Below, piece after piece: positions 3 through 21,031 of a DNA stretch of 27,250 nt. The position numbers and the translations under genes were made by a program. The first letter of the stretch is position 1; every line of letters starts with the position of its first letter. This DNA comes from Patescibacteria group bacterium (GTDB taxonomy: Bacteria > Patescibacteriota > Patescibacteriia > Magasanikbacterales > GWA2-37-8), in assembly GCA_004321885.1 (NCBI GenBank), contig SCQK01000009.1:1-27250 (forward strand), written 5' to 3'. The notes beneath the pieces were generated by a model. That model was not told the origin of the DNA. It saw only the letters and a list, made by a program, of their open reading frames with translations, and did not search any database.

Positions 3-3000
3 TATTTAAATAAAGAAGGAAAAAATCAATATGAACACTATCACCCAAATTTGGTTGATTTGATTAAAAAAACTGTAAAGGAAAGAGGTGAAATAGCGCC
101 GGAAGGATGGATGACTAATAAAGGGCTGGCGGAGATGTTGAAAAAAAACAAGTGGATAATTAATACGAAAGCCAATCAATACAGGCGTTCTTATCCTCAG
201 TGGTTTAAGGCGTATCTAATTCCGTCACTCAAACGGAAACATGAACATTATCATCCTAAATTAGTGGAAATAATTATTAAGGAGATTGAAAACGAAAAAG
301 AATATACTGAAAAAGACAAACTAAAGAAAGAAATGTGTGACTTTGTACAAGAATTAATCAATGGTAGTACAGATAAAAACAAGGATTTCCAATCAATAAT
401 ACGTGTCTGTGGCCCTTCACGCTATTTAGATATTCTTTATAAATTCCACCCTGAATATAAAGGATTGCCCGTGGATTACGTAAAAGGCGTCATCGCCGAC
501 TATCTTGGCGATTTTTTGGTAGCAAAAGGCGAATTTAGACCCGAAGATGTTCCTTTCACTTTAGAATATCTGTCGGATATCACTTTTCAAGAGGGCCTTT
601 ACGAAACCATCAAGGACAACTGTCTAAAATACTATTTTGAACAAAAACGTGCCGGCAAAAAAGACAGCCACGAAATAATTTATGGCTATCTAGATCACAT
701 GGTGAGCGAACTCGGCCACCTTAATAATTCAGTGCTTGATGACATCATTCAAAAAGTGATTGTTTACTACGATTCCGTTTTGCGTGACTTTTATAAGCCG
801 TCAAAATTCGTGAATACACTTAGCAAAGATCGCGAATTTCCGGATTTGAACCAAAAAATAAACATGAAAGAATTGACTGAAAAGAAACGCTTGCTCATCG
901 CCGATGAAATGGGTTTGGGGAAAAGTGCGTCGGTCATCATGGCCAAAGAACAATTGAGAATAAAATGCGCTTTAGTGGTAGCCCCCAGCAATGTATTAAA
1001 TACATGGCAACAATATTTGTCAGAAGTAGACGCTACTGACCCGAAAAGGGGCGGCTATTTCAAAAGCGGGCAAGCGCCACGGGTATTAAAGGTGGAAAAC
1101 GACGAGGACTTAGACCAAGTCAATGCCACTAACTACGACTACATCCTTATTTCCCAGGAACGTTTGAGCGGAGCCAATTATGTCGATAAATTACTGACGA
1201 CTGACTATGACATGTTGATAGCCGATGAAGTGCACAAATTGAAACGGCTTGAAAGCGCGCGCGCTCCGGAACTGTTACGGCTGGCGGGAAAAATAGAGGG
1301 AAAAGATAAATACCTGGCTCTTCTTTCCGGTACACCAATCCCAAATAAAATTGAAGATTTGGCTCTGTTACTCAAACTTCTTTATCCAAAAAAATTTGCT
1401 TCTGTTGATAGCGATGAACTCATCCAACAAATTATCTGCGGTGATACCATGGATCTGCGTGCTCTGTTGCTACCACGGATGCAAATGAAAAATTTGGAAG
1501 AGGGCGTGGAGATGCCTACGTTAACCGAAGAGACGATTAAAGTAGAACTTGATAAATTAGAAAAAGACATATATGAAGTACTCTTAGAGGAAAACGAACT
1601 AACCGCCTCGGAAAAAATAATAATGTTAAGACAATTTCTTTTAAATCCGGAATTGCTGAATTCTACTCCCGGGATTGAAGGTTCAAAAATAAAAGAACTA
1701 TCAAATAGCTTGGACACGGCTTTCCGACATCACGACAAAATCGTAGTGTTTGTTAATGACTACATTGAAGGAATAATGCGGGGGGAAAAATCAATCATAA
1801 AAAAATTACAATTGCCAGCCGATGTGACAATACGGGCAATACATGGAGAAACCGGCAAAGAGGAGCGGCTGGCAATACAGCAGGAATTGCGCCCGGCGCA
1901 TGGAAAATTTTTGCTATTTGTAAGCGGTCAGACAGCCGATGTGGGTGTTGATTATTCCGGCGCTCAACATGTCTTCTTCTACAATGAGCCATGGACCGAA
2001 TATCAAAAACGTCAAGAATTGGGCCGCGTCTATCGTCCCGGGCTGGAAGAAGGTTTGGAAAGCGACACGCTTGTCTCTGTCGGCACAATTGAAGAGGGCA
2101 TTCATGAATATATCCGCCGAAAATACATCGCCGTGGAAAAATTATTACGCGGGATTCCGATTACTGATTTGGAAAAAGAACTGCTGGAAAAAGACGAGAA
2201 AAGCAAGGAGCCGGATTTGTCAGTCAACCCGGAACTGGCCCAATACTATTTCTCTTCATGGGATAAGATGATGAAAATATTTGGTTATGTAAAAGAAATT
2301 GGCGAAGAAAAATTCAATAAATTTTTGTCCAAATACGCCAAGGATTACGCTGACTGCTATTTAGATCTGGGTAATCGCAGTTACCAGTCAAACGCCAACC
2401 GCGTATCCGGTACGCTAATCCATAAATTAGTGAAAGAATCCGGCAGTTCCGCGGAGTCACTGAAAATAATAGACATCGCTTCGGGCCCGGAAATGCTCAA
2501 ACAGCATATTGGAGACGAATATCGTGATAGAATTTTCAGCATTGATATCAACAAACAACATTTCGCGACACGAGAGGGTAACAAAAGAGTCGCTGGGAGC
2601 TTGTCGGCGATGCCTTTCGCAGATCAGTCCTTTGATTTCGCCAACATATCTCTTGCTCTGCATTACACTGGCTTCGCTCCAAGCAAGGGAAAACTGGAAC
2701 GGCTAAAAGTATTAATGGAAACTAATAGAATTCTGAAAGAGGGTGGCAAAGCGATAATTAATCTGATTTATACTCTTGAGCCGAAAGATTTTGAAAAATT
2801 TAAAGAAGCGGCCGAAGTGTTGGGTTTCCGAATTGTTGACGGATACACAGGCGAAGTTAGCGCGGACAAACAATATCTTTCCCGCGTCATTACGTTAGAA
2901 AAAATAAAAAATCTGGATACTAAATTGACCACGGAAGATATGTCCGGTCAATTGGGTAAAGAGAAGCTGGAGGGACTAAAATTCAAAAAAACTGAGGCGA

Positions 3001-3269
3001 AATTAAAGGATTCGCGACAGATTTTGACTTCTTTCAAATTGGGCGGCGCTAAAATTGACGTGCATTTTAACGAGGATGACTTAATGGTGTTAAAAGAAGA
3101 ACAAGAATTGTTGAGGGAGGGGGAATCGCTGAAGCGAAAGTACACAAAAATCGTAAATATACCGCCGCAAGAAATTATTGACCATAATTTTGTTCGCATC
3201 AAAATAGGAAAAAAATATATACTATTCAAAAAGTTATCCAAGGGCTCGGGAGTAGTAATAGTAAAATAA
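3..3269 (+). CDS. SNF2-family helicase fused to a C-terminal class I SAM-dependent methyltransferase; 5' end open at the window edge
   Basis: SNF2 motifs: I 'LIADEMGLGKS', II 'MLIADEVHKLK', III 'LSGTPIPNK', V/VI 'FVSGQTADVGVDYSGAQHVFFYNEPWTEYQKRQELGRVYRPG'. Class I MTase motifs: 'IIDIASGPE', 'SIDIN', 'PFADQSFDFANISLALHY', 'LKEGGKAII'. Reading frame is open back to nt 3, and the first listed start (TTG at 51) is probably internal. About 37% GC, lysine-rich C-terminus. Confidence 0.8.
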   Translation, partial: YLNKEGKNQYEHYHPNLVDLIKKTVKERGEIAPEGWMTNKGLAEMLKKNKWIINTKANQYRRSYPQWFKAYLIPSLKRKHEHYHPKLVEIIIKEIENEKEYTEKDKLKKEMCDFVQELINGSTDKNKDFQSIIRVCGPSRYLDILYKFHPEYKGLPVDYVKGVIADYLGDFLVAKGEFRPEDVPFTLEYLSDITFQEGLYETIKDNCLKYYFEQKRAGKKDSHEIIYGYLDHMVSELGHLNNSVLDDIIQKVIVYYDSVLRDFYKPSKFVNTLSKDREFPDLNQKINMKELTEKKRLLIADEMGLGKSASVIMAKEQLRIKCALVVAPSNVLNTWQQYLSEVDATDPKRGGYFKSGQAPRVLKVENDEDLDQVNATNYDYILISQERLSGANYVDKLLTTDYDMLIADEVHKLKRLESARAPELLRLAGKIEGKDKYLALLSGTPIPNKIEDLALLLKLLYPKKFASVDSDELIQQIICGDTMDLRALLLPRMQMKNLEEGVEMPTLTEETIKVELDKLEKDIYEVLLEENELTASEKIIMLRQFLLNPELLNSTPGIEGSKIKELSNSLDTAFRHHDKIVVFVNDYIEGIMRGEKSIIKKLQLPADVTIRAIHGETGKEERLAIQQELRPAHGKFLLFVSGQTADVGVDYSGAQHVFFYNEPWTEYQKRQELGRVYRPGLEEGLESDTLVSVGTIEEGIHEYIRRKYIAVEKLLRGIPITDLEKELLEKDEKSKEPDLSVNPELAQYYFSSWDKMMKIFGYVKEIGEEKFNKFLSKYAKDYADCYLDLGNRSYQSNANRVSGTLIHKLVKESGSSAESLKIIDIASGPEMLKQHIGDEYRDRIFSIDINKQHFATREGNKRVAGSLSAMPFADQSFDFANISLALHYTGFAPSKGKLERLKVLMETNRILKEGGKAIINLIYTLEPKDFEKFKEAAEVLGFRIVDGYTGEVSADKQYLSRVITLEKIKNLDTKLTTEDMSGQLGKEKLEGLKFKKTEAKLKDSRQILTSFKLGGAKIDVHFNEDDLMVLKEEQELLREGESLKRKYTKIVNIPPQEIIDHNFVRIKIGKKYILFKKLSKGSGVVIVK

Positions 3270-3483
3270 TTTTCTTCACCTACCAAACTTCAATGGCAGA
3301 TATACTATATAGCGACGTCGGACTCGCCCCCTATTTTGATATTGACAAAACTGCTAAAAATAGCATACTATTCCCTGCTGACTTATCAGTGGATAGCGGC
3401 TCCCGCCCGGTTTTAAAATTTCTTGACTACCGAGCGGGAACCACTATCAACCAACAACGTACATTCCGCAAGGAGAAATTCCG

Positions 3484-4623
3484 ATGGCTCTTTTCTTCCC
3501 CGGACTTTCAAAGACGTTTCTCGGACGCTACGAAAACAACCCCAAAGAGCTCCGCGTTCTCCAAGTGATCTGCGAACACCTGCGCAGTGGTTACACCACT
3601 GGAAAAAAGCGCGGCGCTGGATCTAAGGAAGACAAGGTCTTTCAAGACGCGAAGGACTCCCTGGAAAAAGAAGATGTCCCCTTGGAAAGAAAGGACTTCA
3701 TCTACATCAAAGCCGGGATCCGAATCGCCTACAAAATCCTCGTGGGCGAAGAGGGTGAGGATACGAGCACCACGCTTTCAGAAAACATCATCTCGGATTT
3801 GCGTGTGGATGGCATAACAAACTGGACAGAGGTGCTCCGGGCAAACGGCGACCTGGACTATCTGTTCAAGAATGAGCGCGAAACGGCCGCGCGGGCCGAA
3901 GCCGCGCTCACAGAAGCCCAAGCAACTCTGGAAAAGCTGGCGTCGCGCACCAACAAGGTGCGCGTGAGCGAAAAGCTCATAACCTTGGTTGGCGAACTGC
4001 TTCCCACGCTGGAGGATGTCCTCGCGGAAAACGAATCGCTCAAGGAGGCGGCATCGCGATTCGCCGAAGAGCGAACAGAATCAGAACGTAAGCTTCTCGA
4101 AGCCGAAACAATGATTCGCCTGCTCGAAGAGGACAACGATTCGGCCCAGGGCCGTTTGGACAGCGTCAGGGCAGAACTCCGGAAGGCCCATGACCTCTCG
4201 GTCTTGCAATTGGCTCTCCAATATCCACAGCATCCCCAGCTCATGGAGATAGCCCAACGCATTGAGGAAGATAAGAAGCAAGGGCAAAACGAGATGGGGA
4301 CGTTGGTTGCCCAACTACCAAAAACCTACACTGGAGGAACGATAGAATACAAGCAACGATTCCTCCGACTACTGTTCGATCTCGCGCGAAACGAACAGGA
4401 GCAGATCATCGGTCAACTGCGAAATCTGGCCGAACAGGGGCCGAAGCATGCTTCCTTGCACACGAGGAAGACGCAAATACGTCTCCTCTACAGCCCGATG
4501 GACTGCATGGTTTCCCGCGGCGCGGATGACATCCGCTTCACATGGAGCAAGGAGAACGGCGCGATTACCGTTCACTGGCTCTACCGAAAGGGCGATAGCC
4601 GCGTGCGTCAATCCGAGGCATAA
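3484..4623 (+). CDS. hypothetical coiled-coil protein in a GC-rich (foreign-looking) segment
   Basis: ATG preceded by AAGGAG 8 nt upstream. About 57-60% GC against an AT-rich neighbour. Central E/R/L/A-rich heptad-like region. Intrinsic terminator follows immediately. Confidence 0.6.
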   Translation: MALFFPGLSKTFLGRYENNPKELRVLQVICEHLRSGYTTGKKRGAGSKEDKVFQDAKDSLEKEDVPLERKDFIYIKAGIRIAYKILVGEEGEDTSTTLSENIISDLRVDGITNWTEVLRANGDLDYLFKNERETAARAEAALTEAQATLEKLASRTNKVRVSEKLITLVGELLPTLEDVLAENESLKEAASRFAEERTESERKLLEAETMIRLLEEDNDSAQGRLDSVRAELRKAHDLSVLQLALQYPQHPQLMEIAQRIEEDKKQGQNEMGTLVAQLPKTYTGGTIEYKQRFLRLLFDLARNEQEQIIGQLRNLAEQGPKHASLHTRKTQIRLLYSPMDCMVSRGADDIRFTWSKENGAITVHWLYRKGDSRVRQSEA

Positions 4624-4640: not shown

Positions 4641-4673
4641 ATCCCGCTGTTCGCCCGGCGGGATTCTTTTTTT
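4641..4673 (+). terminator. rho-independent terminator: ATCCCGC...GCGGGAT stem followed by TCTTTTTTT
   Basis: 7-bp GC stem with 10-nt loop and a U-tract. The U-tract overlaps the stop codon of the convergent - strand gene. Confidence 0.6.
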
Positions 4674-5916
4674 ACACCAACTCAAACCTCCGCCGGCGGC
4701 CGTAGAGAAGATAAATAATGAGAGCAATAATAGCTATAAAAATAAACGTGCGGTAATACGGCACATAAAGCGCGAGAACGCCCCAGCCGCTTATCCACTC
4801 AATAGAAATTGAGCCCTGCACCGTCTCCACGTTGTTTATCAACTGTCGGTCTTGCTGGTCCAAGAAAACAAGCTGTTCCTGTTCGTTTTTTATTCGCGCG
4901 TCAATTTCATTTCGTTTCTTCTGGTACTGCGCGTTCTCGTTGGCCAAAAGCTGATTAAGCCGGCGCTGTTCGGTTGACAGATTACTAACGGCGACCGCGA
5001 TTTCCTGTTGGCGCTCGGTGCTGGTGGTAAATTCTTTTTTTAATTTATTGATACTGTTAGCCGTATAGCTTAACTGTTGTTTTAGTGAAGCGACCTTGGT
5101 ATTATGGCTGACCACCAAGTCCTGCCTTTGTTTTTGCGAATCCGCCAGAGCGCTTTGGGAAGAAGCTGTGTTTTGTTCAATGACGGTTTTCTCGGGCAAC
5201 AGATTGCGCGAGTTTATTATTTCAGCCATAAAGCGCGGACTGGCGGCCAATTCCTTCAACTCGTCCTTAAACGATTCCATCTCTGATTTGGGTAGCACAA
5301 ATTCAATGCGCGCGTATTTGGAATCCGACGATGAATTGTCTACACGGCCGCCATGCCCGCGCACTATAGTCTGAGCGCGCGTCGCTTTCTTTTGCACTTG
5401 TCGTGTTTTAATTTCGGCGTGATAATCGGTTTTCAAGTATTCGCGGGTGTCAAAGGGTGAGGCCTGCGTAAAATAACGGCCAATACTTTTAGCGGCTCCA
5501 CCAACTATCTCGCCTACGATTCCACCAGCGGTAACCTCACGCGCGCTAAGACCGGTATACGCGCCATAAACAACGCCTAAATCGTTTGCGCTGATTTCTC
5601 CAGAAGAGGATCTCTGATAGCCAACTTTGCTCGCCGCATCATAACCGTAGCCAGCAGGGTTCAAACCATGATCGGCCGAAGTTAAACGATTTAAATAGAA
5701 ACCTTGCGTAACGAAAAATAAAATAGATAACCCCCCGCAGACAAACGCAATCCGCCAAGGATAACGAAAACGGCGACGTTCGGGTTGAACAGTATTTTGC
5801 GTTCTAAGCGCGGCAAAAATCCTCGCCTTCATCGCTTCGTTGCCAATTGGCAATATTCGCTCTTTCTGCCCCCAATGATGAAGTAAATCTTTTAAATTGT
5901 AACTGACTTGTGTCAT
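4672..5916 (-). CDS. DUF4349-like membrane protein (putative anti-sigma factor partner)
   Basis: TM helix 'IAFVCGGLSILFFVTQGFY' near the N-terminus and 'VLALYVPYYRTFIFIAIIALIIYLL' at the C-terminus. Q/E/K-rich coiled-coil segment. Lies directly downstream of, and co-oriented with, the ECF sigma gene. Confidence 0.55.
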   Translation of the reverse strand: MTQVSYNLKDLLHHWGQKERILPIGNEAMKARIFAALRTQNTVQPERRRFRYPWRIAFVCGGLSILFFVTQGFYLNRLTSADHGLNPAGYGYDAASKVGYQRSSSGEISANDLGVVYGAYTGLSAREVTAGGIVGEIVGGAAKSIGRYFTQASPFDTREYLKTDYHAEIKTRQVQKKATRAQTIVRGHGGRVDNSSSDSKYARIEFVLPKSEMESFKDELKELAASPRFMAEIINSRNLLPEKTVIEQNTASSQSALADSQKQRQDLVVSHNTKVASLKQQLSYTANSINKLKKEFTTSTERQQEIAVAVSNLSTEQRRLNQLLANENAQYQKKRNEIDARIKNEQEQLVFLDQQDRQLINNVETVQGSISIEWISGWGVLALYVPYYRTFIFIAIIALIIYLLYGRRRRFELV

Positions 5917-5974
5917 AAACGAAATGGGTGAGGAAAATATTTTCGAACGAATGAGTCTATATGTGACGCAGCCC

Positions 5975-6508
5975 TTATACTATTGTGTTAAAACCCGTGC
6001 GCGCCCGAGCCAGCGACCGATGCACGCGCACTCGCGCTGTGATAACGGAAATTTCCAGCACCCGCGCGATTTCTTTAAACGGCAAATCGGCGATATAGCG
6101 CAAACGGAGCAATTCCCTGTCTTCTTCCGGCAACATTTTCAAAATCTTTTCCACCAAAAATTTTTCAGACAAATCGCCGCCGACTGAAACCGTTTGGAAA
6201 TTTTCCTCGTTAGTTTCTTCAATGGATCTCTCTCGGCCGTTCTGCCGCCAATGCTGGCGGCACTCGTTGCGCGCGATGGCAAACAGCCAGGAGCTAAACC
6301 TTACGCCGCGGGCATGAAATTTTGCCAGCGATGCTATCGCCTTGAGCCATGTATTCTGCAAAATATCATCGGCCAAACTTTTTTCGCGCAAGGTGTTCAC
6401 CAGATAGCCGTACAATTTCGGCGTGATGGCGTCCCAAAGCAAGCCCAAAGCGGCCTGTTCTCCTTTTTTGGCCCGAGCTATCAAGGCAAGTTCTTCGTGT
6501 ATTTCCAT
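5975..6508 (-). CDS. ECF-type RNA polymerase sigma-70 factor
   Basis: Region 2 ('LLWDAITPKLYGYLVNTLREKSLADDILQNTWLKAIASLAKF') and region 4 ('DRELLRLRYIADLPFKEIARVLEISVITARVRVHRSLARAR'). Start chosen at internal Met 'MEIHEEL' (ATG 6508-6506) with GGGAGG about 12 nt upstream. The ORF-track extension to 6703 runs through a promoter, structured RNA and terminator. Confidence 0.8.
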   Translation of the reverse strand: MEIHEELALIARAKKGEQAALGLLWDAITPKLYGYLVNTLREKSLADDILQNTWLKAIASLAKFHARGVRFSSWLFAIARNECRQHWRQNGRERSIEETNEENFQTVSVGGDLSEKFLVEKILKMLPEEDRELLRLRYIADLPFKEIARVLEISVITARVRVHRSLARARTGFNTIV

Positions 6509-6589
6509 AGATGTCTGTTTGCCTCCCCGTCGGGAGTGCCACCATTCTACTAAAGATAATGCGCGAAAGCAATAAAATGTTACATAAAC

Positions 6590-6614
6590 AAAAAACCGCC
6601 TCGCGAAGAGACGG
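6590..6614 (-). terminator. rho-independent terminator (- strand): CCGUCUC-UUCGC-GAGGCGG followed by UUUUUU
   Basis: Read on the - strand: 7-bp stem with one G-U pair, then a T6 run. Sits between the tRNA-like structure and the sigma gene start. Confidence 0.55.
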
Positions 6615-6623
6615 CTTTGAGTG

Positions 6624-6692
6624 TGGAGCCAAGGGGTATTGAACCCCTCTATCCGAGTGCTAACCACGGAACCCTCACCATGAGGTGGCCCC
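6624..6692 (-). ncRNA. tRNA-like degenerate element (acceptor stem plus perfect T-arm, non-canonical D/anticodon region)
   Basis: - strand: GGGGCCA...TGGCTCC acceptor pairing (7 bp with one G-U). T-arm AGGGG-TTCAATA-CCCCT with canonical T-loop. Only 69 nt, no encoded CCA, no standard D-arm. Preceded by an extended -10 'TGGTATAAT' at 6712-6720 (- strand). Confidence 0.3.
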
Positions 6693-6705
6693 CTGTACTC
6701 CACGC

Positions 6706-6720
6706 GAGCATTATACCAAA
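6706..6720 (-). promoter_or_regulatory. extended -10 promoter 'TTTGGTATAATG' (- strand) driving the tRNA-like RNA
   Basis: TGnTATAAT consensus read on the - strand. A second similar box 'TTGGTATAGTG' lies at 6794-6806 (- strand) ahead of a second small hairpin and terminator unit. Confidence 0.4.
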
Positions 6721-6732
6721 TTTTGAGGCATC

Positions 6733-6758
6733 AAAAAAGCCCGAGATATTTCTCGGAC
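6733..6758 (-). terminator. rho-independent terminator (- strand): GUCCGAGA-AAUA-UCUCGGGC followed by UUUUUU
   Basis: 8-bp stem, tetraloop and T6 when read on the - strand. Terminates a roughly 60-nt transcript from the 6794-6806 promoter-like box. Confidence 0.55.
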
Positions 6759-6898
6759 TTTCAGGGTTCAATAGAATCCGTGGTTAGCATTATCACTATA
6801 CCAATTTTAATAATATTTGTCAATATCACCTATCCACACCCCCTTTACTAAATGTCTTTTGAGAGATAAGATATATCCAGAAAATTACCCCCACCCAA

Positions 6899-6932: not shown

Positions 6933-8498
6933 ATGTCAAAATATATTCCCATCATCGGCCTGGAAATACACGTGGAGCTAAAAACCAAGAGCAAAATGTT
7001 TTGCTCCTGCGCCAACAACCCGGACCGCCCGCCTCGCCCGACGAGCGGGCTCGTCGAGGCGGGCGACGCCCCAAACACCAATGTCTGCGAAATCTGTCTG
7101 GCGCACCCGGGCACCTTGCCCGTGCCGAATAAAACCGCTATTGAATGGGCCGCCAAAATCGCCACTGCCCTGGGATGCAAGCTCAACAAAGAAAGTAAAT
7201 TTGACCGCAAGCATTATTTTTACCCCGACCTGCCCAAGGGCTACCAGATTTCCCAATTTGACCAGCCCATCGGCGAGCACGGCTTTATTGAACTCCAATT
7301 TCCAGTCGGCAAAAACCCGCGCGAAGCGGCGCGCATCGGTATCACTCGCGTGCATTTGGAAGAAGACACGGCAAAGTTGACCCACGGGGCGAAGGGAGAA
7401 ACTTTGGTTGACTTCAACCGCGCCGGCGTGCCCCTGGTGGAAATCGTATCCGAGCCCGACGTGCAAAGCGCCGTTGAAGCCAAGAGCTATTGCCAGGAAC
7501 TGCAAAATATTTTTCGCTATCTCGGCGTGAGCGACGCGGACATGGAAAAAGGCCACATGCGCTGTGAGGCCAACGTGTCGGTGCAGGAAGAAGGAAAATT
7601 TACAAACGACAAGGGCGTGATAAAACCGACAGGAAAAAACAAACTAAACGCCAAAGTTGAAGTGAAAAATATAAACTCTTTCCGCGCCGTGGAAAAAGCG
7701 ATTGAATTTGAAATCAAACGCCAGACCGCCATGATAGAAAAAGGCGAATCATGGAAACAGCAGACCCGCGGCTGGGATGACGACAAGGGCGAAACGATTT
7801 TACAAAGAGAAAAAGAAACCTCGGCCGATTACCGCTACTTCCCCGAGCCCGATATTCCACCGTTTAATCCGGTTAAAATCACCGGCGACATCTCTTTGCC
7901 CGAACTGCCGGCCGCCAAACGGTCTCGCTTCCGCGACGAGTATGGTTTTTCTTATTCCGACGCCGACATCTTGGCCAGCGACGCGCACTGGGCGGCTTTT
8001 ACCGAACAAGTGATGAGCGAACTCGTTGACTGGCTGAAAACTTTATCCAAAAAAGAATCTCCGGCGCAAATCGCGCGGCTGGCCGGCGGCTGGATTACTT
8101 CCAAACTGATGGGCGCCATGGCCGAACGCAAAATTGACATTCGTATTCTGAAATTAAAGCCGGAAAATTTCGCCGAACTGGTCGCTTTGATTTACACAAA
8201 CAAAGTCAACTCCACCAACGCGCAAAAAATTCTGGCCGAGATGCTGAACTCGGGCGTGGACATGGACCCCACGCATATAATGGAAGACAAGGGCTACGGC
8301 CAAATAGCCGACGAAGGCAAACTGGGCGAAGTGGTTGATGAAGTGCTCAAGAGCCACCCTGAACAAGTGGCGCAATTCAAAGCCGGCAAAGAACCGATTT
8401 TACAATTTCTAAAAGGCATGGTAATGAAAGCGACCGAGGGCTCGGCCGACCCGCAAATGGCGGAAAAATTGCTGCGGGAGAGAATTAAAATATCCTGA
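6933..8498 (+). CDS. gatB: aspartyl/glutamyl-tRNA(Asn/Gln) amidotransferase subunit B
   Basis: 'IGLEIHVELKTKSKMFCSC...NTNVCEICLAHPGTLPVPN...FDRKHYFYPDLPKGYQISQFDQPIGEHG' are typical GatB motifs. C-terminal YqeY-like tail. Contains a roughly 14-aa in-frame insertion encoded by a GC palindrome. Confidence 0.9.
   Translation: MSKYIPIIGLEIHVELKTKSKMFCSCANNPDRPPRPTSGLVEAGDAPNTNVCEICLAHPGTLPVPNKTAIEWAAKIATALGCKLNKESKFDRKHYFYPDLPKGYQISQFDQPIGEHGFIELQFPVGKNPREAARIGITRVHLEEDTAKLTHGAKGETLVDFNRAGVPLVEIVSEPDVQSAVEAKSYCQELQNIFRYLGVSDADMEKGHMRCEANVSVQEEGKFTNDKGVIKPTGKNKLNAKVEVKNINSFRAVEKAIEFEIKRQTAMIEKGESWKQQTRGWDDDKGETILQREKETSADYRYFPEPDIPPFNPVKITGDISLPELPAAKRSRFRDEYGFSYSDADILASDAHWAAFTEQVMSELVDWLKTLSKKESPAQIARLAGGWITSKLMGAMAERKIDIRILKLKPENFAELVALIYTNKVNSTNAQKILAEMLNSGVDMDPTHIMEDKGYGQIADEGKLGEVVDEVLKSHPEQVAQFKAGKEPILQFLKGMVMKATEGSADPQMAEKLLRERIKIS
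7026..7065 (+). repeat. 40-nt GC-rich near-perfect palindrome inserted in-frame in gatB
   Basis: 'cgcccgcctcg' and 'cgaggcgggcg' are perfect 11-bp arms. Inner 'cgacgag-cggg-ctcgtcg' hairpin. Encodes 'PDRPPRPTSGLVEAGDAP' between the conserved 'KMFCSC' and 'PNTNVC'. Confidence 0.7.
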
Positions 8499-19975: not shown

Positions 19976-21031
19976 ATGTTTGAACCAAAGTATAAAATCA
20001 CCAATCAAATCATCCAGATGCTCACCGCCATCGCCGAGGCCAAGGCGATTATTGAACGCGCGCGCCTTTTGCCGAAGCACGAACTCAAACTGCGACGCCA
20101 GGCCCTTCTCCGCATGACCCACAGCTCCACGGCCATAGAAGGCAACCGGCTGAATATGCGCGAAGTGGAGGCCGTGGCGGCGCGCAAAAAAGTGGATGCC
20201 CCGGAACGCGAAATCTATGAAGTAAAAAACTACCTGGAAGCGATTCGCTACATTGAAAAAGTCGTAAAAAACAACCAGCCAATCACCGAAAAGATTATCT
20301 TACAAATTCACCGGCTTGTAACCGACAAAACTTTGCCGGCACATTCCTCGGGGCAATATCGCAAAGGGCCGGTGTATGTGGTGCGGCGCTGGAGAGACGG
20401 CCGCCAGGAAGTTTTGTATACCGCGGCTGGCGCCGGACAAGTCCCCGGTCTTATGGCCGGCTTAACGCGCTGGCTCGCTGAAAGTGAAACGCAAAATATC
20501 AGCCCAGTCATCGTGGCCGGTATCGCGCACCAGGAAATCGCGGCTATTCACCCCTTTGCCGACGGTAATGGCCGCACCGCGCGCGCCCTGGCCACGCTTA
20601 TCCTTTACCGACGCGGCTACGACTTTCGCCGCCTTTTCGCCCTGGAAGATTTCTACAACGAAGACAGGCCGTCGTATTATCGCGCCATCAACGTCGGCAA
20701 AAACTACCAACAGCGCCGCGTTGATTTTACGCCATGGCTGGAATATTTTGTGCGCGGATTTAAGGAAGAAATTATTAAAGTGAAAAATAACGTGCTCACA
20801 CTATCGGCCAAAAAGGTTGACAAAAAAATTGAAGCGCAAATTTATCTTGATAAAGACCAGCTCAAAATTTTGGAGTTTGCCGACCAGATGGGAAAAATAT
20901 CCGTGGGCGACGTGGTGGATATTTTGAGTTGTCCCAAACGCACCGCCCAATCGTATCTACAAAAATTAAAAAAACTGAAAATTATCCGGCAAGTCGGCAA
21001 AGGGCCGGCCAGCGGATATATAATAGCGTGA
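19976..21031 (+). CDS. fic: Fic/Doc family protein (class II, N-terminal inhibitory helix) with C-terminal winged-helix domain
   Basis: Fic motif 'HPFADGNGRTARAL'. Inhibitory motif 'STAIEG' ([ST]xxxE[GN]) near the N-terminus. C-terminal HTH-like 'ISVGDVVDILSCPKRTAQSYLQKL'. Stop is 6 nt before the pyrE ATG. Confidence 0.85.
   Translation: MFEPKYKITNQIIQMLTAIAEAKAIIERARLLPKHELKLRRQALLRMTHSSTAIEGNRLNMREVEAVAARKKVDAPEREIYEVKNYLEAIRYIEKVVKNNQPITEKIILQIHRLVTDKTLPAHSSGQYRKGPVYVVRRWRDGRQEVLYTAAGAGQVPGLMAGLTRWLAESETQNISPVIVAGIAHQEIAAIHPFADGNGRTARALATLILYRRGYDFRRLFALEDFYNEDRPSYYRAINVGKNYQQRRVDFTPWLEYFVRGFKEEIIKVKNNVLTLSAKKVDKKIEAQIYLDKDQLKILEFADQMGKISVGDVVDILSCPKRTAQSYLQKLKKLKIIRQVGKGPASGYIIA

Follow-up and report, generated by a model that had tools for sequence, protein, structure and literature searches.

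What is encoded in the 427-bp gap between an extracytoplasmic function (ECF) sigma factor gene (5975-6505, minus strand) and gatB (6933-8498, plus strand) in contig SCQK01000009.1 of a Patescibacteria group bacterium (assembly GCA_004321885.1)? The whole stretch of DNA that was analysed, 27,250 nucleotides long, is hereafter called the window. The gap holds two RNA units, both on the minus strand: a small RNA and, downstream of it, a tRNA-like RNA to which the small RNA is complementary. The locus is best explained as a single representative of a two-gene RNA module that is chromosomal and conserved in Patescibacteria. Read along the minus strand, a DnaA-box-like motif is followed by the promoter of the small RNA (unit 2), the small RNA itself, the -10 element of the tRNA-like RNA (unit 1), and finally the tRNA-like RNA with its terminator. 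An initial annotation of this DNA had described two tandem promoter-RNA-terminator units on the minus strand, and they were present as described; the limits that it gave for the region left out the -35 element of the small RNA and the DnaA-box-like motif (6830-6838).

The two RNAs are complementary in more than one place. A repeat search found a perfect complementarity of 13 nt (100%) between UCCGUGGUUAGCA in the tRNA-like RNA (6658-6670) and UGCUAACCACGGA at the 5' end of the small RNA (6777-6789), one base longer than the 12 nt noted initially. A separated inverted repeat of at least 12 nt arose in 1 of 400 shuffles of the 223-nt region. A further 10 nt were perfectly complementary between 6637-6646 and 6764-6773. 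Here the initial annotation had read GGGTTCAATA as common to both RNAs; they do not share it, and unit 2 carries its reverse complement TATTGAACCC, which makes the second complementarity.

The two genes do not overlap, and the complementarity must thus be kept by co-evolution. All covariation counts were made in an alignment of both RNAs with 50 sequences. Over its first 13-17 nt the small RNA was exactly complementary to one arm of the tRNA-like RNA, the loop arm, in its 5' strand and loop, though the sequence of this arm differs between members: the window combines the 5' tail GCUAACCACGGA with the loop arm UCCGUGGUUAGC, L012 has GUCGAAUACGGA with UCCGUAUUCGAC, L022 has GAUAAGCGCGAGU with ACUCGCGCUUAUC and L050 has GUUAAGUGCGGAA with UUCCGCACUUAAC. 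Among the 17 pairs of this intermolecular helix 13 showed changes on both sides, and the core 13 pairs were standard pairs in 50/50 sequences, with up to five pair types per position. When the partner was slid by 1-3 columns the pairing collapsed to 37-51%. Cognate duplexes had a mean energy of -24.7 kcal/mol, non-cognate ones of -13.8 kcal/mol, and only 3.5% of the non-cognate partners bound as well. For the structure as a whole, none of 500 shuffles reached the observed value on four of five measures. The helix is compensated and cognate-specific, as for RNAs that base-pair in trans, and the intermolecular covariation is among the clearest one could ask for. Of the readings offered at the outset, that of a pair of base-pairing small RNAs was therefore strongly supported by the compensatory changes and by the cognate advantage.

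The loop arm also covaries as an intramolecular hairpin. Alignment pair 166:174 is GC in 29 sequences, AU in 18 and GU in 3, and pairs 161:180 and 162:178 switch together in Saccharibacteria; the RNAalifold consensus agrees with this hairpin. As a hairpin that competes with the intermolecular helix is kept by covariation, we concluded that the tRNA-like RNA exists both free and bound.

Two more segments of the small RNA are complementary to the tRNA-like RNA. The linker (6764-6773, UAUUGAACCC) matches the 5' half of the T arm (GGGUUCAAUA); across the family the linker YUAUUGAACYCC reached a mean of -12.0 kcal/mol against the T-arm 5' half (z = -2.7), with 93.5% of cells paired and 86% of members beating 95% of shuffles. 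The terminator 5' strand GUCCGAG is complementary to the 3' strand CUCGGAU of the loop arm with z = -4.5, and the match is significant in 98% of members; pairing extends over 94.6% of cells, with double changes at 4 of 7 pairs. Saccharibacteria have the two strands switched in concert, CCGAGU with ACUCGG. Neither the linker helix nor the terminator helix gave a cognate-versus-non-cognate signal. Taken together, linker and terminator 5' strand form a continuous antisense to the tRNA-like RNA from the arm 3' strand through the T loop. Two other candidates were rejected: covariation between T-loop A/G and linker U/C, for which the counts were near independence, and a pairing of linker with leader suggested by co-folding, which was no better than shuffles (z = -0.7) and not cognate-specific. 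Within the window no other target of the 5' tail was found beyond chance.

Every conserved part of the small RNA is matched by pairing with the tRNA-like RNA. On the other side, the acceptor, the D-like hairpin with its GG and the T-stem 3' strand of the tRNA-like RNA are conserved and left untouched by the small RNA. This asymmetry is the main reason why we take the small RNA as a dedicated regulator and the tRNA-like RNA as the effector.

The gene of the tRNA-like RNA extends from its inferred start G6703 to 6590 and is preceded by an extended -10 element, TGGTATAAT (6710-6718), without a recognisable -35. The RNA opens with a 5' leader, GUGGAGUACAG (6693-6703), followed by the tRNA-like core (6624-6692) and an intrinsic terminator (6590-6618) with an 11-pair stem and T6. 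Within the core a 7-bp acceptor stem, GGGGCCA/UGGCUCC (6692-6686 with 6631-6625), encloses a D-like hairpin (6685-6673; 5 bp, loop UGG), the loop arm (6670-6652; 6 bp, UCCG-U-G/C-U-CGGA, 7-nt loop GUUAGCA) and a T arm (6648-6632; 5-bp stem AGGGG/CCCCU, loop UUCAAUA) that directly abuts the acceptor 3' strand; the discriminator base is A6624. In the computed fold a 72-mer of this RNA adopts a cloverleaf. The 7-bp acceptor thus stacks on a 5-bp T stem with a UUCRANY-type T loop, as in a tRNA. The T arm of the initial annotation was real, and so was its closing stem GUGGAG/CUCCAC, which is conserved; the middle of the RNA, for which it had noted no canonical D or anticodon arms, is not armless but has the 5-bp D-like hairpin and the 6-bp loop arm.

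The acceptor carries G1:C72, G2:C71, G3:U70 and G4:C69, together with A73. In tRNAs these are the alanine identity elements read by alanyl-tRNA synthetase (AlaRS), which does not inspect the anticodon, and the acceptor/T-arm module is the tRNA part recognised by AlaRS, elongation factor EF-Tu and RNase P. In the alignment G3:U70 was present in 48/50 sequences, G2:C71 in 47/50 and the discriminator A in 49/50. Judged from its sequence, the RNA is predicted to have alanine identity (G3:U70, A73 and G2:C71). The D-like hairpin has 4-5 bp and an NGG loop with invariant GG across the family, and there are no linker nucleotides at positions 8-9. The 7-nt loop of the loop arm is N-U-Y-R-N-C-R in all members. 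Its triplet takes six values (CGA, UAG, UGA, UAA, UGU and UAU), none of them an alanine anticodon, and position 37 is C in all members, where decoding tRNAs have a purine. The variable triplet and the C after it argue against decoding. The U-N-R, kept throughout, makes a U-turn like that of anticodon loops and is the signature of loops that are recognised rapidly by antisense RNAs.

The 3' strand of the acceptor has a second possible partner. Pairing of the leader segment GUGGAGU with GCUCCAC (6629-6623) gives a different closing stem; this stem and the acceptor stem GGGGCCA/UGGCUCC are mutually exclusive, as they share one 3' strand. In the 50 sequences the leader stem was pairable in 99.7% of cells and the acceptor-type stem in 98.6%. 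Changes in the leader stem were one-sided and compatible with pairing (12 members have C for U7, two have U for C88 and one has G for A87); the shared strand is invariant, as is expected of a strand with two partners. It is the acceptor stem, and not GUGGAG/CUCCAC, that gives the exact tRNA geometry with G3:U70 and A73. The acceptor stem is also backed by paralogues: C6:G67 is replaced by U6:A67 in the second module of L050, and the divergent copy L016:1635-1716 has GGGGCGA/UCGCUCC with G6:C67, while G3:U70 is kept. We concluded that both closing stems are probably real and alternative, for example in the precursor and the processed form.

The small RNA (about 6733-6789, minus strand, about 57 nt) consists of the 5' tail, the linker and an intrinsic terminator (6733-6761), which forms a 12-bp hairpin followed by U6 (fold z = -4.2). 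Its promoter (6795-6823) matches the consensus at 11 of 12 positions, with a -35 element TTGACA (6823-6818), a 17-nt spacer and a TG-extended -10 element TATAGT (6800-6795). The family follows the same plan, TTGACA-17-TAtAcT, an RNA of about 60 nt and a terminator, and in nearly all members TTGAC precedes the small RNA at a similar distance. No conserved reading frame was seen by eye in the small RNA; stop codons and frames vary across members.

About 6 nt upstream of the small-RNA -35 lies the DnaA-box-like motif TGTGGATAG (6830-6838, minus strand), which matches TTATCCACA at 8 of 9 positions. The DnaA-box consensus TGTGGATAA, with at most one mismatch, was found at the same position, 45-50 nt upstream of the small-RNA start, in 17/50 members (a box at the matching position is carried by L016, L023, L024, L033, L046, L048, L049, L053, L070, L139, L156 and others), and about four further members have it inverted, as judged by eye; the background expectation is 0.009 per window. 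A DnaA box at so fixed a position suggests DnaA-dependent control of the small RNA in the box-carrying lineages. A second, Parcubacteria-type subfamily has a conserved AT-rich upstream block with TTAGATAT in place of the DnaA box. That the region could be a replication origin was rejected, as the intergenic region holds a single DnaA-box-like site, with no cluster of boxes and no skew switch.

The module is widely distributed. A scan of genomes, one per species, with the pattern GGTTCAATACCNNNNGGCTCCA gave 40 loci, 22 of which show the complete arrangement: TGnTAnAAT and, after 6-7 nt, GUGGAGU, then a spacer of 3-7 nt, GGGGCC, the hairpin CCUCANGGUGAGG, loop arm and T arm, and lastly GGCUCCAC and a terminator. 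A metagenome scan on a different segment (CCACCTCNNGGTGAGG…GGTTC) returned at least 120 matches, and about half of the matches listed were family members. The two scans fixed different segments and the parts left unfixed were still near-invariant, so the conservation is no artefact of the search patterns. After de-duplication at least 61 members remained, nearly all from Patescibacteria records (Magasanikbacteria, Uhrbacteria, Buchananbacteria, Kuenenbacteria, Saccharibacteria, Parcubacteria group and Patescibacteria group) or from unlabelled metagenome contigs; L022 and L079 have sequences of the Saccharibacteria type. The tRNA-like sequence is near-invariant across these distant lineages of the candidate phyla radiation (CPR). 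The small RNA lies immediately upstream of the tRNA-like gene in 53/61 members. Wherever the upstream sequence was readable (60 members), a TAnnnT element precedes the leader G by 5-8 nt, and in 55/60 it has the TGn extension; the leader is a conserved 10-13 nt, and a hairpin with a T-run follows the tRNA-like gene in 44/59 members. Conservation of both units in dozens of other contigs is far beyond chance. A covariance model built from 47 sequences gave the window copy 104.2 bits (E = 5e-27) and detected no second copy in the window. Two scans of viral contigs and a search of one phage genome collection gave no viral or phage copies, and no protein family recurs beside the module in four or more loci, apart from spurious open reading frames (ORFs) over the RNA itself.

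Some contigs hold two modules each (L016, L050, L108, L145 and L160). Their tRNA-like genes can lie 1-3 kb apart, as in L050 (159-240 and 3377-3457), L108 (2105-2185 and 4756-4836), L145 (5774-5854 and 6842-6922) and L160 (1221-1302 and 2157-2237). In L050 and L016, the two contigs compared, the pairing sequences differ between the copies, and each L050 copy has its own small RNA with a different address (the CACUUAACAU type and the GUAUUCGACAU type). One Magasanikbacteria bin holds three modules, two in L016 and one in L033; between L016 and L033 the sole difference is in the loop triplet region (AUCGACA and AUUAGCA). One of the two L016 copies is a divergent paralogue of the whole module (1455-1790, plus strand), 1.3 kb from the ordinary copy, with a DnaA box and a consensus promoter. 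The 5' end of its small RNA, AACAUGGCAAUGG, pairs with CCAUUGCCAUGUU, and its tRNA-like gene (1635-1716) has a T stem AGAG/CUCU, a different D-like hairpin in which the GG loop is kept, and a weakened leader stem. With 32.9 bits from the covariance model its score is low, so more distant members, beyond our search patterns, probably exist. A search of the homologue loci for further tRNA-like genes with G3:U70 gave only family members and this one divergent paralogue.

A few loci depart from the common pattern. The CPR module is also present in bins labelled Gammaproteobacteria (L013, L020, L024, L025, L044 and L045) and Bdellovibrionales (L035); proteins of L025 and L035 scored far below the NCBIfam equivalog cut-offs (for example ClpB, 552 bits against 1232 and split into two ORFs), so these labels are probably wrong. 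L025 and L126 have upstream a different terminated transcript with UAUCCGAG, which is complementary to the arm 3' strand. A degenerate copy was found in Kuenenbacteria (L036, 987-1092; 37 bits); its T stem is broken and a 5' acceptor strand could not be recognised. In L132 a 21-nt stretch, UAUCCGAGUGUCAAUUGCGGG, about 50 nt upstream of the small-RNA start is antisense to the loop arm of another address type and looks like a fragment of an inverted second module.

No gene finder accounts for the region. ARAGORN called no tRNA or transfer-messenger RNA (tmRNA) gene in the window and none among the homologues in the 40 genome-scan loci, and no Rfam family matched the window at its gathering threshold; a confident canonical tRNA call, which would have disposed of the initial annotation, did not come from these two programs. 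A canonical tRNA was also rejected for its C37 and for the six variable triplets without an alanine anticodon. The sole family with a suggestive, though sub-threshold, Rfam match was the tRNA-like domain of tmRNA. Under permissive settings the tmRNA model (RF00023) reached 18.2 bits (E = 2e-05) on a 501-nt stretch and 9.7 bits (E = 0.016) on a 96-nt stretch, far below its gathering score of 47, and the permuted model RF04321 gave 11.7 and 13.5 bits against 47. The ends of the tmRNA model align to 6692-6621 with the whole model interior skipped. The alignment covers GGGGCCA…, the T arm GAGGGGUUCAAUACCCCU and UGGCUCC-A, that is, acceptor and T arm only, and no more than 32 nt separate the acceptor 5' region from the T arm. 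We rejected a tmRNA proper because of the sub-threshold scores, because the tRNA-like RNA has no pseudoknots and because no conserved frame was seen in either RNA by inspection. Nor is the element the tmRNA of the phylum: records of standard tmRNA exist for 5252 of 6765 Patescibacteria genomes (PMC11915505), and the element occurs in at least two copies on one contig. The same source holds three 'Standard NoCDS' Patescibacteria entries, which might be members of the present family. Weak Rfam matches to RefA9, MicC, mascRNA, Plastid-ycf2 and NsiR1 were dismissed as look-alikes of terminators or T arms. At 6563-6618 on the plus strand, opposite the terminator of the tRNA-like RNA, the match to RefA9 (Enterococcus sRNA A9) had 33.5 bits against 49 (E = 0.002); most likely this is a terminator hairpin that reads similarly both ways and not a gene.

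What might such a pair do? On balance we lean towards a reading in which the small RNA is an antisense RNA dedicated to an alanine-identity tRNA mimic, which it masks or unfolds, thereby setting the supply of folded mimic. Its single-stranded 5' tail would nucleate on the U-turn loop of the tRNA-like RNA, and the duplex would zip 13-17 bp into the loop arm and free the 3' strand of the arm. Pairing of the linker with the T arm and of the terminator 5' strand with the freed strand could next unfold the T arm. The small RNA would in this way be a dedicated mask or inactivator of the tRNA(Ala) mimic. We infer that both genes are transcribed, that the mimic is processed by RNase P and RNase Z, receives CCA and is charged by AlaRS, that the small RNA is the controlling partner, and that it is the free mimic that acts. 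In a bolder version, which we hold to be doubtful, the translation machinery would be the target of the chargeable alanine tRNA mimic, which might, for instance, be a tag-less rescue or stalling factor, or else a sink for AlaRS or EF-Tu; each copy would be checked by its own antisense RNA, tied in many lineages to DnaA and thereby to the state of replication or growth, in a phylum-wide, multi-copy system made of RNA only.

Several observations weigh against control of a mimic by its antisense RNA. The leader pairs with the same 3' strand as the acceptor, RNAalifold picks the leader stem, and the tRNA-like acceptor may form only after processing or refolding. The identity pairs are broken in a few members (U2.C71 in three, U1.C72, A3:U70 and U3.U70 in one each). 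CCA is not encoded in the window nor in most members inspected; 3' of the discriminator the window gene encodes A-CAC, and across members the first C is conserved while the next two bases vary. L025 (1485-1565) and L126 have a full-scoring tRNA-like gene (103 bits), and neither has a recognisable small RNA within 260 nt upstream. The linker/T-arm helix shows little covariation, because the T arm hardly varies, and co-evolution of linker and leader was not detected. A weak point is the direction of control, since binding would have to inactivate the mimic rather than activate it.

The two transcripts could instead be one constitutive particle, a heterodimer as in two-piece (permuted) tmRNAs, with a purely structural duplex that could resemble tmRNA helix P2 as a long rod beside an alanine-accepting acceptor/T-arm module; such a particle could serve as a tag-less ribosome-rescue factor or another translation-linked cofactor. 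The helix sequence does drift while its pairing is strictly kept, as for a structural helix, the genes are adjacent, and the tRNA-like domain of tmRNA is the only family resemblance; tag-less tmRNAs, moreover, exist in mitochondria, some plastids and phage DS6A (PMC11915505). An RNA that is always bound, however, would not need the competing hairpin that covariation has kept. The topology is also unlike that of tmRNA, as it is at the core-proximal end that the small-RNA body departs from the helix, and this body has no conserved frame, the phylum already possesses a standard tmRNA, and the promoters appear unequal (consensus -35/-10 on the small RNA, extended -10 only on its partner), which suggests unequal amounts. 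We therefore consider a constitutive particle unlikely. A variant with a mini tag was rejected: a frame ending …QSPKP and a stop codon runs into the terminator loop in one subfamily and is absent in the window and in many members. The same unequal promoters on adjacent genes would suit an RNA-only, toxin-antitoxin-like growth switch, in which the free mimic is harmful or arrests growth, for instance by competing for AlaRS, EF-Tu, RNase P, tmRNA-SmpB or the ribosomal A site, and is neutralised by a strongly expressed antisense RNA whose promoter is often wired to DnaA. Contigs with two cognate-specific modules, the varied gene neighbourhoods, the DnaA-box-like motif at a fixed position in at least 17/50 members and the 5' tail directed at a U-turn loop, as in hok/sok-type systems, all fit. 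Yet the very strong conservation throughout the phylum and the housekeeping rather than mobile contexts are unlike typical toxin-antitoxin loci, the scans made gave no phage or viral copies, the tRNA-like gene of L025 stands without an adjacent small RNA, and toxicity is pure conjecture, so that we think a growth switch improbable. A hok/sok-like type I system in the strict sense was rejected, as the target here is a structured non-coding RNA without a conserved ORF.

Sensing in trans, in the manner of a T-box, has less to recommend it. The tRNA-like RNA would bind the small RNA while this is still nascent; after the 5' tail has opened the arm, the freed CUCGGAU would capture the terminator strand GUCCGAG, block termination and let transcription read through into the tRNA-like gene, as a feedback. 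This would explain why the terminator 5' strand is unusually conserved, complementary to the arm and switched together with it in Saccharibacteria. The downstream gene has its own promoter in all 60 readable members, though, the terminator helix shows no cognate preference, the divergent paralogue L016:1635-1716 lacks the complementarity of terminator and arm, and it is not obvious why an RNA should feed back positively on itself; we regard such sensing as very improbable. Least credible, to the point that we give it hardly any weight, are the two other readings of the initial annotation: a cis-acting leader or riboswitch of the sigma/anti-sigma operon, and a decayed tRNA or tmRNA left as an attachment-site (att) scar at an island border. 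The sigma gene does follow the element on the same strand after 85 nt, and many genomic islands are known to integrate into tRNA and tmRNA genes (PMC11915505). As a leader it fails because each RNA ends in its own terminator, because the eight loci of the closest sigma homologues (L001-L008, the contexts of four sigma homologues) have no related RNA, and because elsewhere the module adjoins unrelated genes, with no conserved coding neighbour. A scar would not be expected to keep its promoter, its full-length structure and a covarying partner in about 60 contigs; the -10 element in every readable member, the terminator in most, the near-invariant sequence and the housekeeping surroundings all speak against decay, and neither ARAGORN nor Rfam, at its gathering thresholds, recognised a tRNA or tmRNA in the window. 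For the same reasons, full length with its own promoter and terminator, a duplicate att site was rejected, and no integrase was found among the window ORFs scanned.

The tRNA-like/antisense pair was not found in Rfam or in the literature searched. The tRNA-like domain of tmRNA has no D-like hairpin or anticodon-like arm. The tRNA-like RNA resembles that domain in its G3:U70 acceptor, the discriminator A, the T arm stacked on the acceptor and the absence of decoding, but it has a D-like hairpin, an anticodon-like arm and a dedicated antisense partner, it lacks pseudoknots, a tag frame and an intramolecular P2 helix, and it co-exists with standard tmRNA in the phylum. Its acceptor GGGGCC/GGCUCC is presumably closer to that of tRNA(Ala) than to that of tmRNA, with the B. 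subtilis sequences as reference. In size, the tag-less plastid tmRNA of about 65 bp (PMC11915505) comes close to the roughly 70 nt of the tRNA-like RNA. With tRNA(Ala) the RNA shares the identity pairs, A73, the T loop UUCRAUA, the cloverleaf order of arms and a 7-nt loop with U at the U33 position; it differs in the shrunken D arm, the missing 8-9 linker, the variable triplet and C37, and in having a conserved leader and its own promoter and terminator.

Among antisense systems, hok/sok and RNA-IN/RNA-OUT of IS10 also use a single-stranded 5' tail to recognise a U-turn target loop. The present pair is like them in the 5' tail that meets a U-N-R hairpin loop, the extended duplex and the adjacent dedicated partner, whereas here the genes do not overlap and the target is a non-coding tRNA mimic with no toxin reading frame. 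The type VIII pairs SdsR/RyeA and CreT/CreA likewise consist of RNA on both sides, with possible neutralisation by pairing, but our module has no CRISPR link, has a different architecture and is phylum-wide rather than patchy, and its toxicity is conjectural. YrlA, a bacterial Y RNA, is also a tRNA mimic; its ends lie at the opposite pole and its gene lies near rsr, which is not so here. T-box leaders likewise combine the reading of a tRNA anticodon arm with a terminator, but they pair over 3-4 nt and are cis-leaders of protein-coding genes. The 3'ETS(leuZ) sponge is similar as a tRNA-linked transcript that pairs with small RNAs. None of the YrlA, T-box and 3'ETS(leuZ) families matched in Rfam. 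The module is thus built from known kinds, tRNA mimics and antisense pairs on U-turn loops, and may be categorically new if the mimic is charged and acts on translation.

CPR/Patescibacteria make up a large and mostly uncultured share of bacterial diversity, and according to one preprint even the best-studied CPR strain has no validated small RNAs (bioRxiv 10.1101/2022.03.25.485537). In this phylum the module appears widespread, strongly conserved and often multi-copy, yet it has been missed by ARAGORN and Rfam. If the mimic is charged with alanine it would be a new non-decoding aminoacyl carrier, with a bearing on ribosome rescue, on aminoacylation of cell wall and lipids, and on growth control in minimal genomes. 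If it is not charged, the pairs would still be natural orthogonal RNA-RNA addresses on a tRNA scaffold, of interest to RNA engineering. Should the bolder version hold, with a chargeable mimic that acts on translation and an antisense RNA tied to DnaA, this would amount to a previously unknown coupling of translation and cell cycle, or to a type of RNA-RNA toxin-antitoxin with a tRNA mimic as toxin. With a covariance model of the pair, hundreds of 'empty' CPR intergenic regions would receive a label.

The genes around the module in the window are mostly housekeeping ones (pyrimidine pathway, ruvA, efp and a class II aminoacyl-tRNA synthetase), and the nearest relative of its GatB is 77% identical. 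On the minus strand at 4672-6505 the ECF sigma gene is followed by a gene for a 414-aa protein with a weak DUF4349 match, and the two are probably a sigma/anti-sigma pair; a sigma gene with a partner of about 394-409 aa was also found in the related CPR loci L002 and L004-L008. The sigma gene may have its own promoter, TTGCTT-17-TAGAAT, between the terminator of the tRNA-like RNA and the sigma start. At the beginning of the window (51-3269, plus strand) lies a gene whose 1072-aa product fuses an SNF2-family helicase to a methyltransferase domain; two ORFs without Pfam matches come next (3293-3568 and 3484-4623), and the G+C content climbs from 0.40 to 0.50 across this stretch. The pyrimidine-biosynthesis cluster comprises carA, carB, pyrB, pyrI, a dihydroorotase-like amidohydrolase, a second carbamoyltransferase, pyrD with an electron-transfer subunit, a phosphoribosyltransferase and pyrF, and it is contiguous except for a Fic/DOC-family gene (19976-21031, plus strand) that lies inside it.

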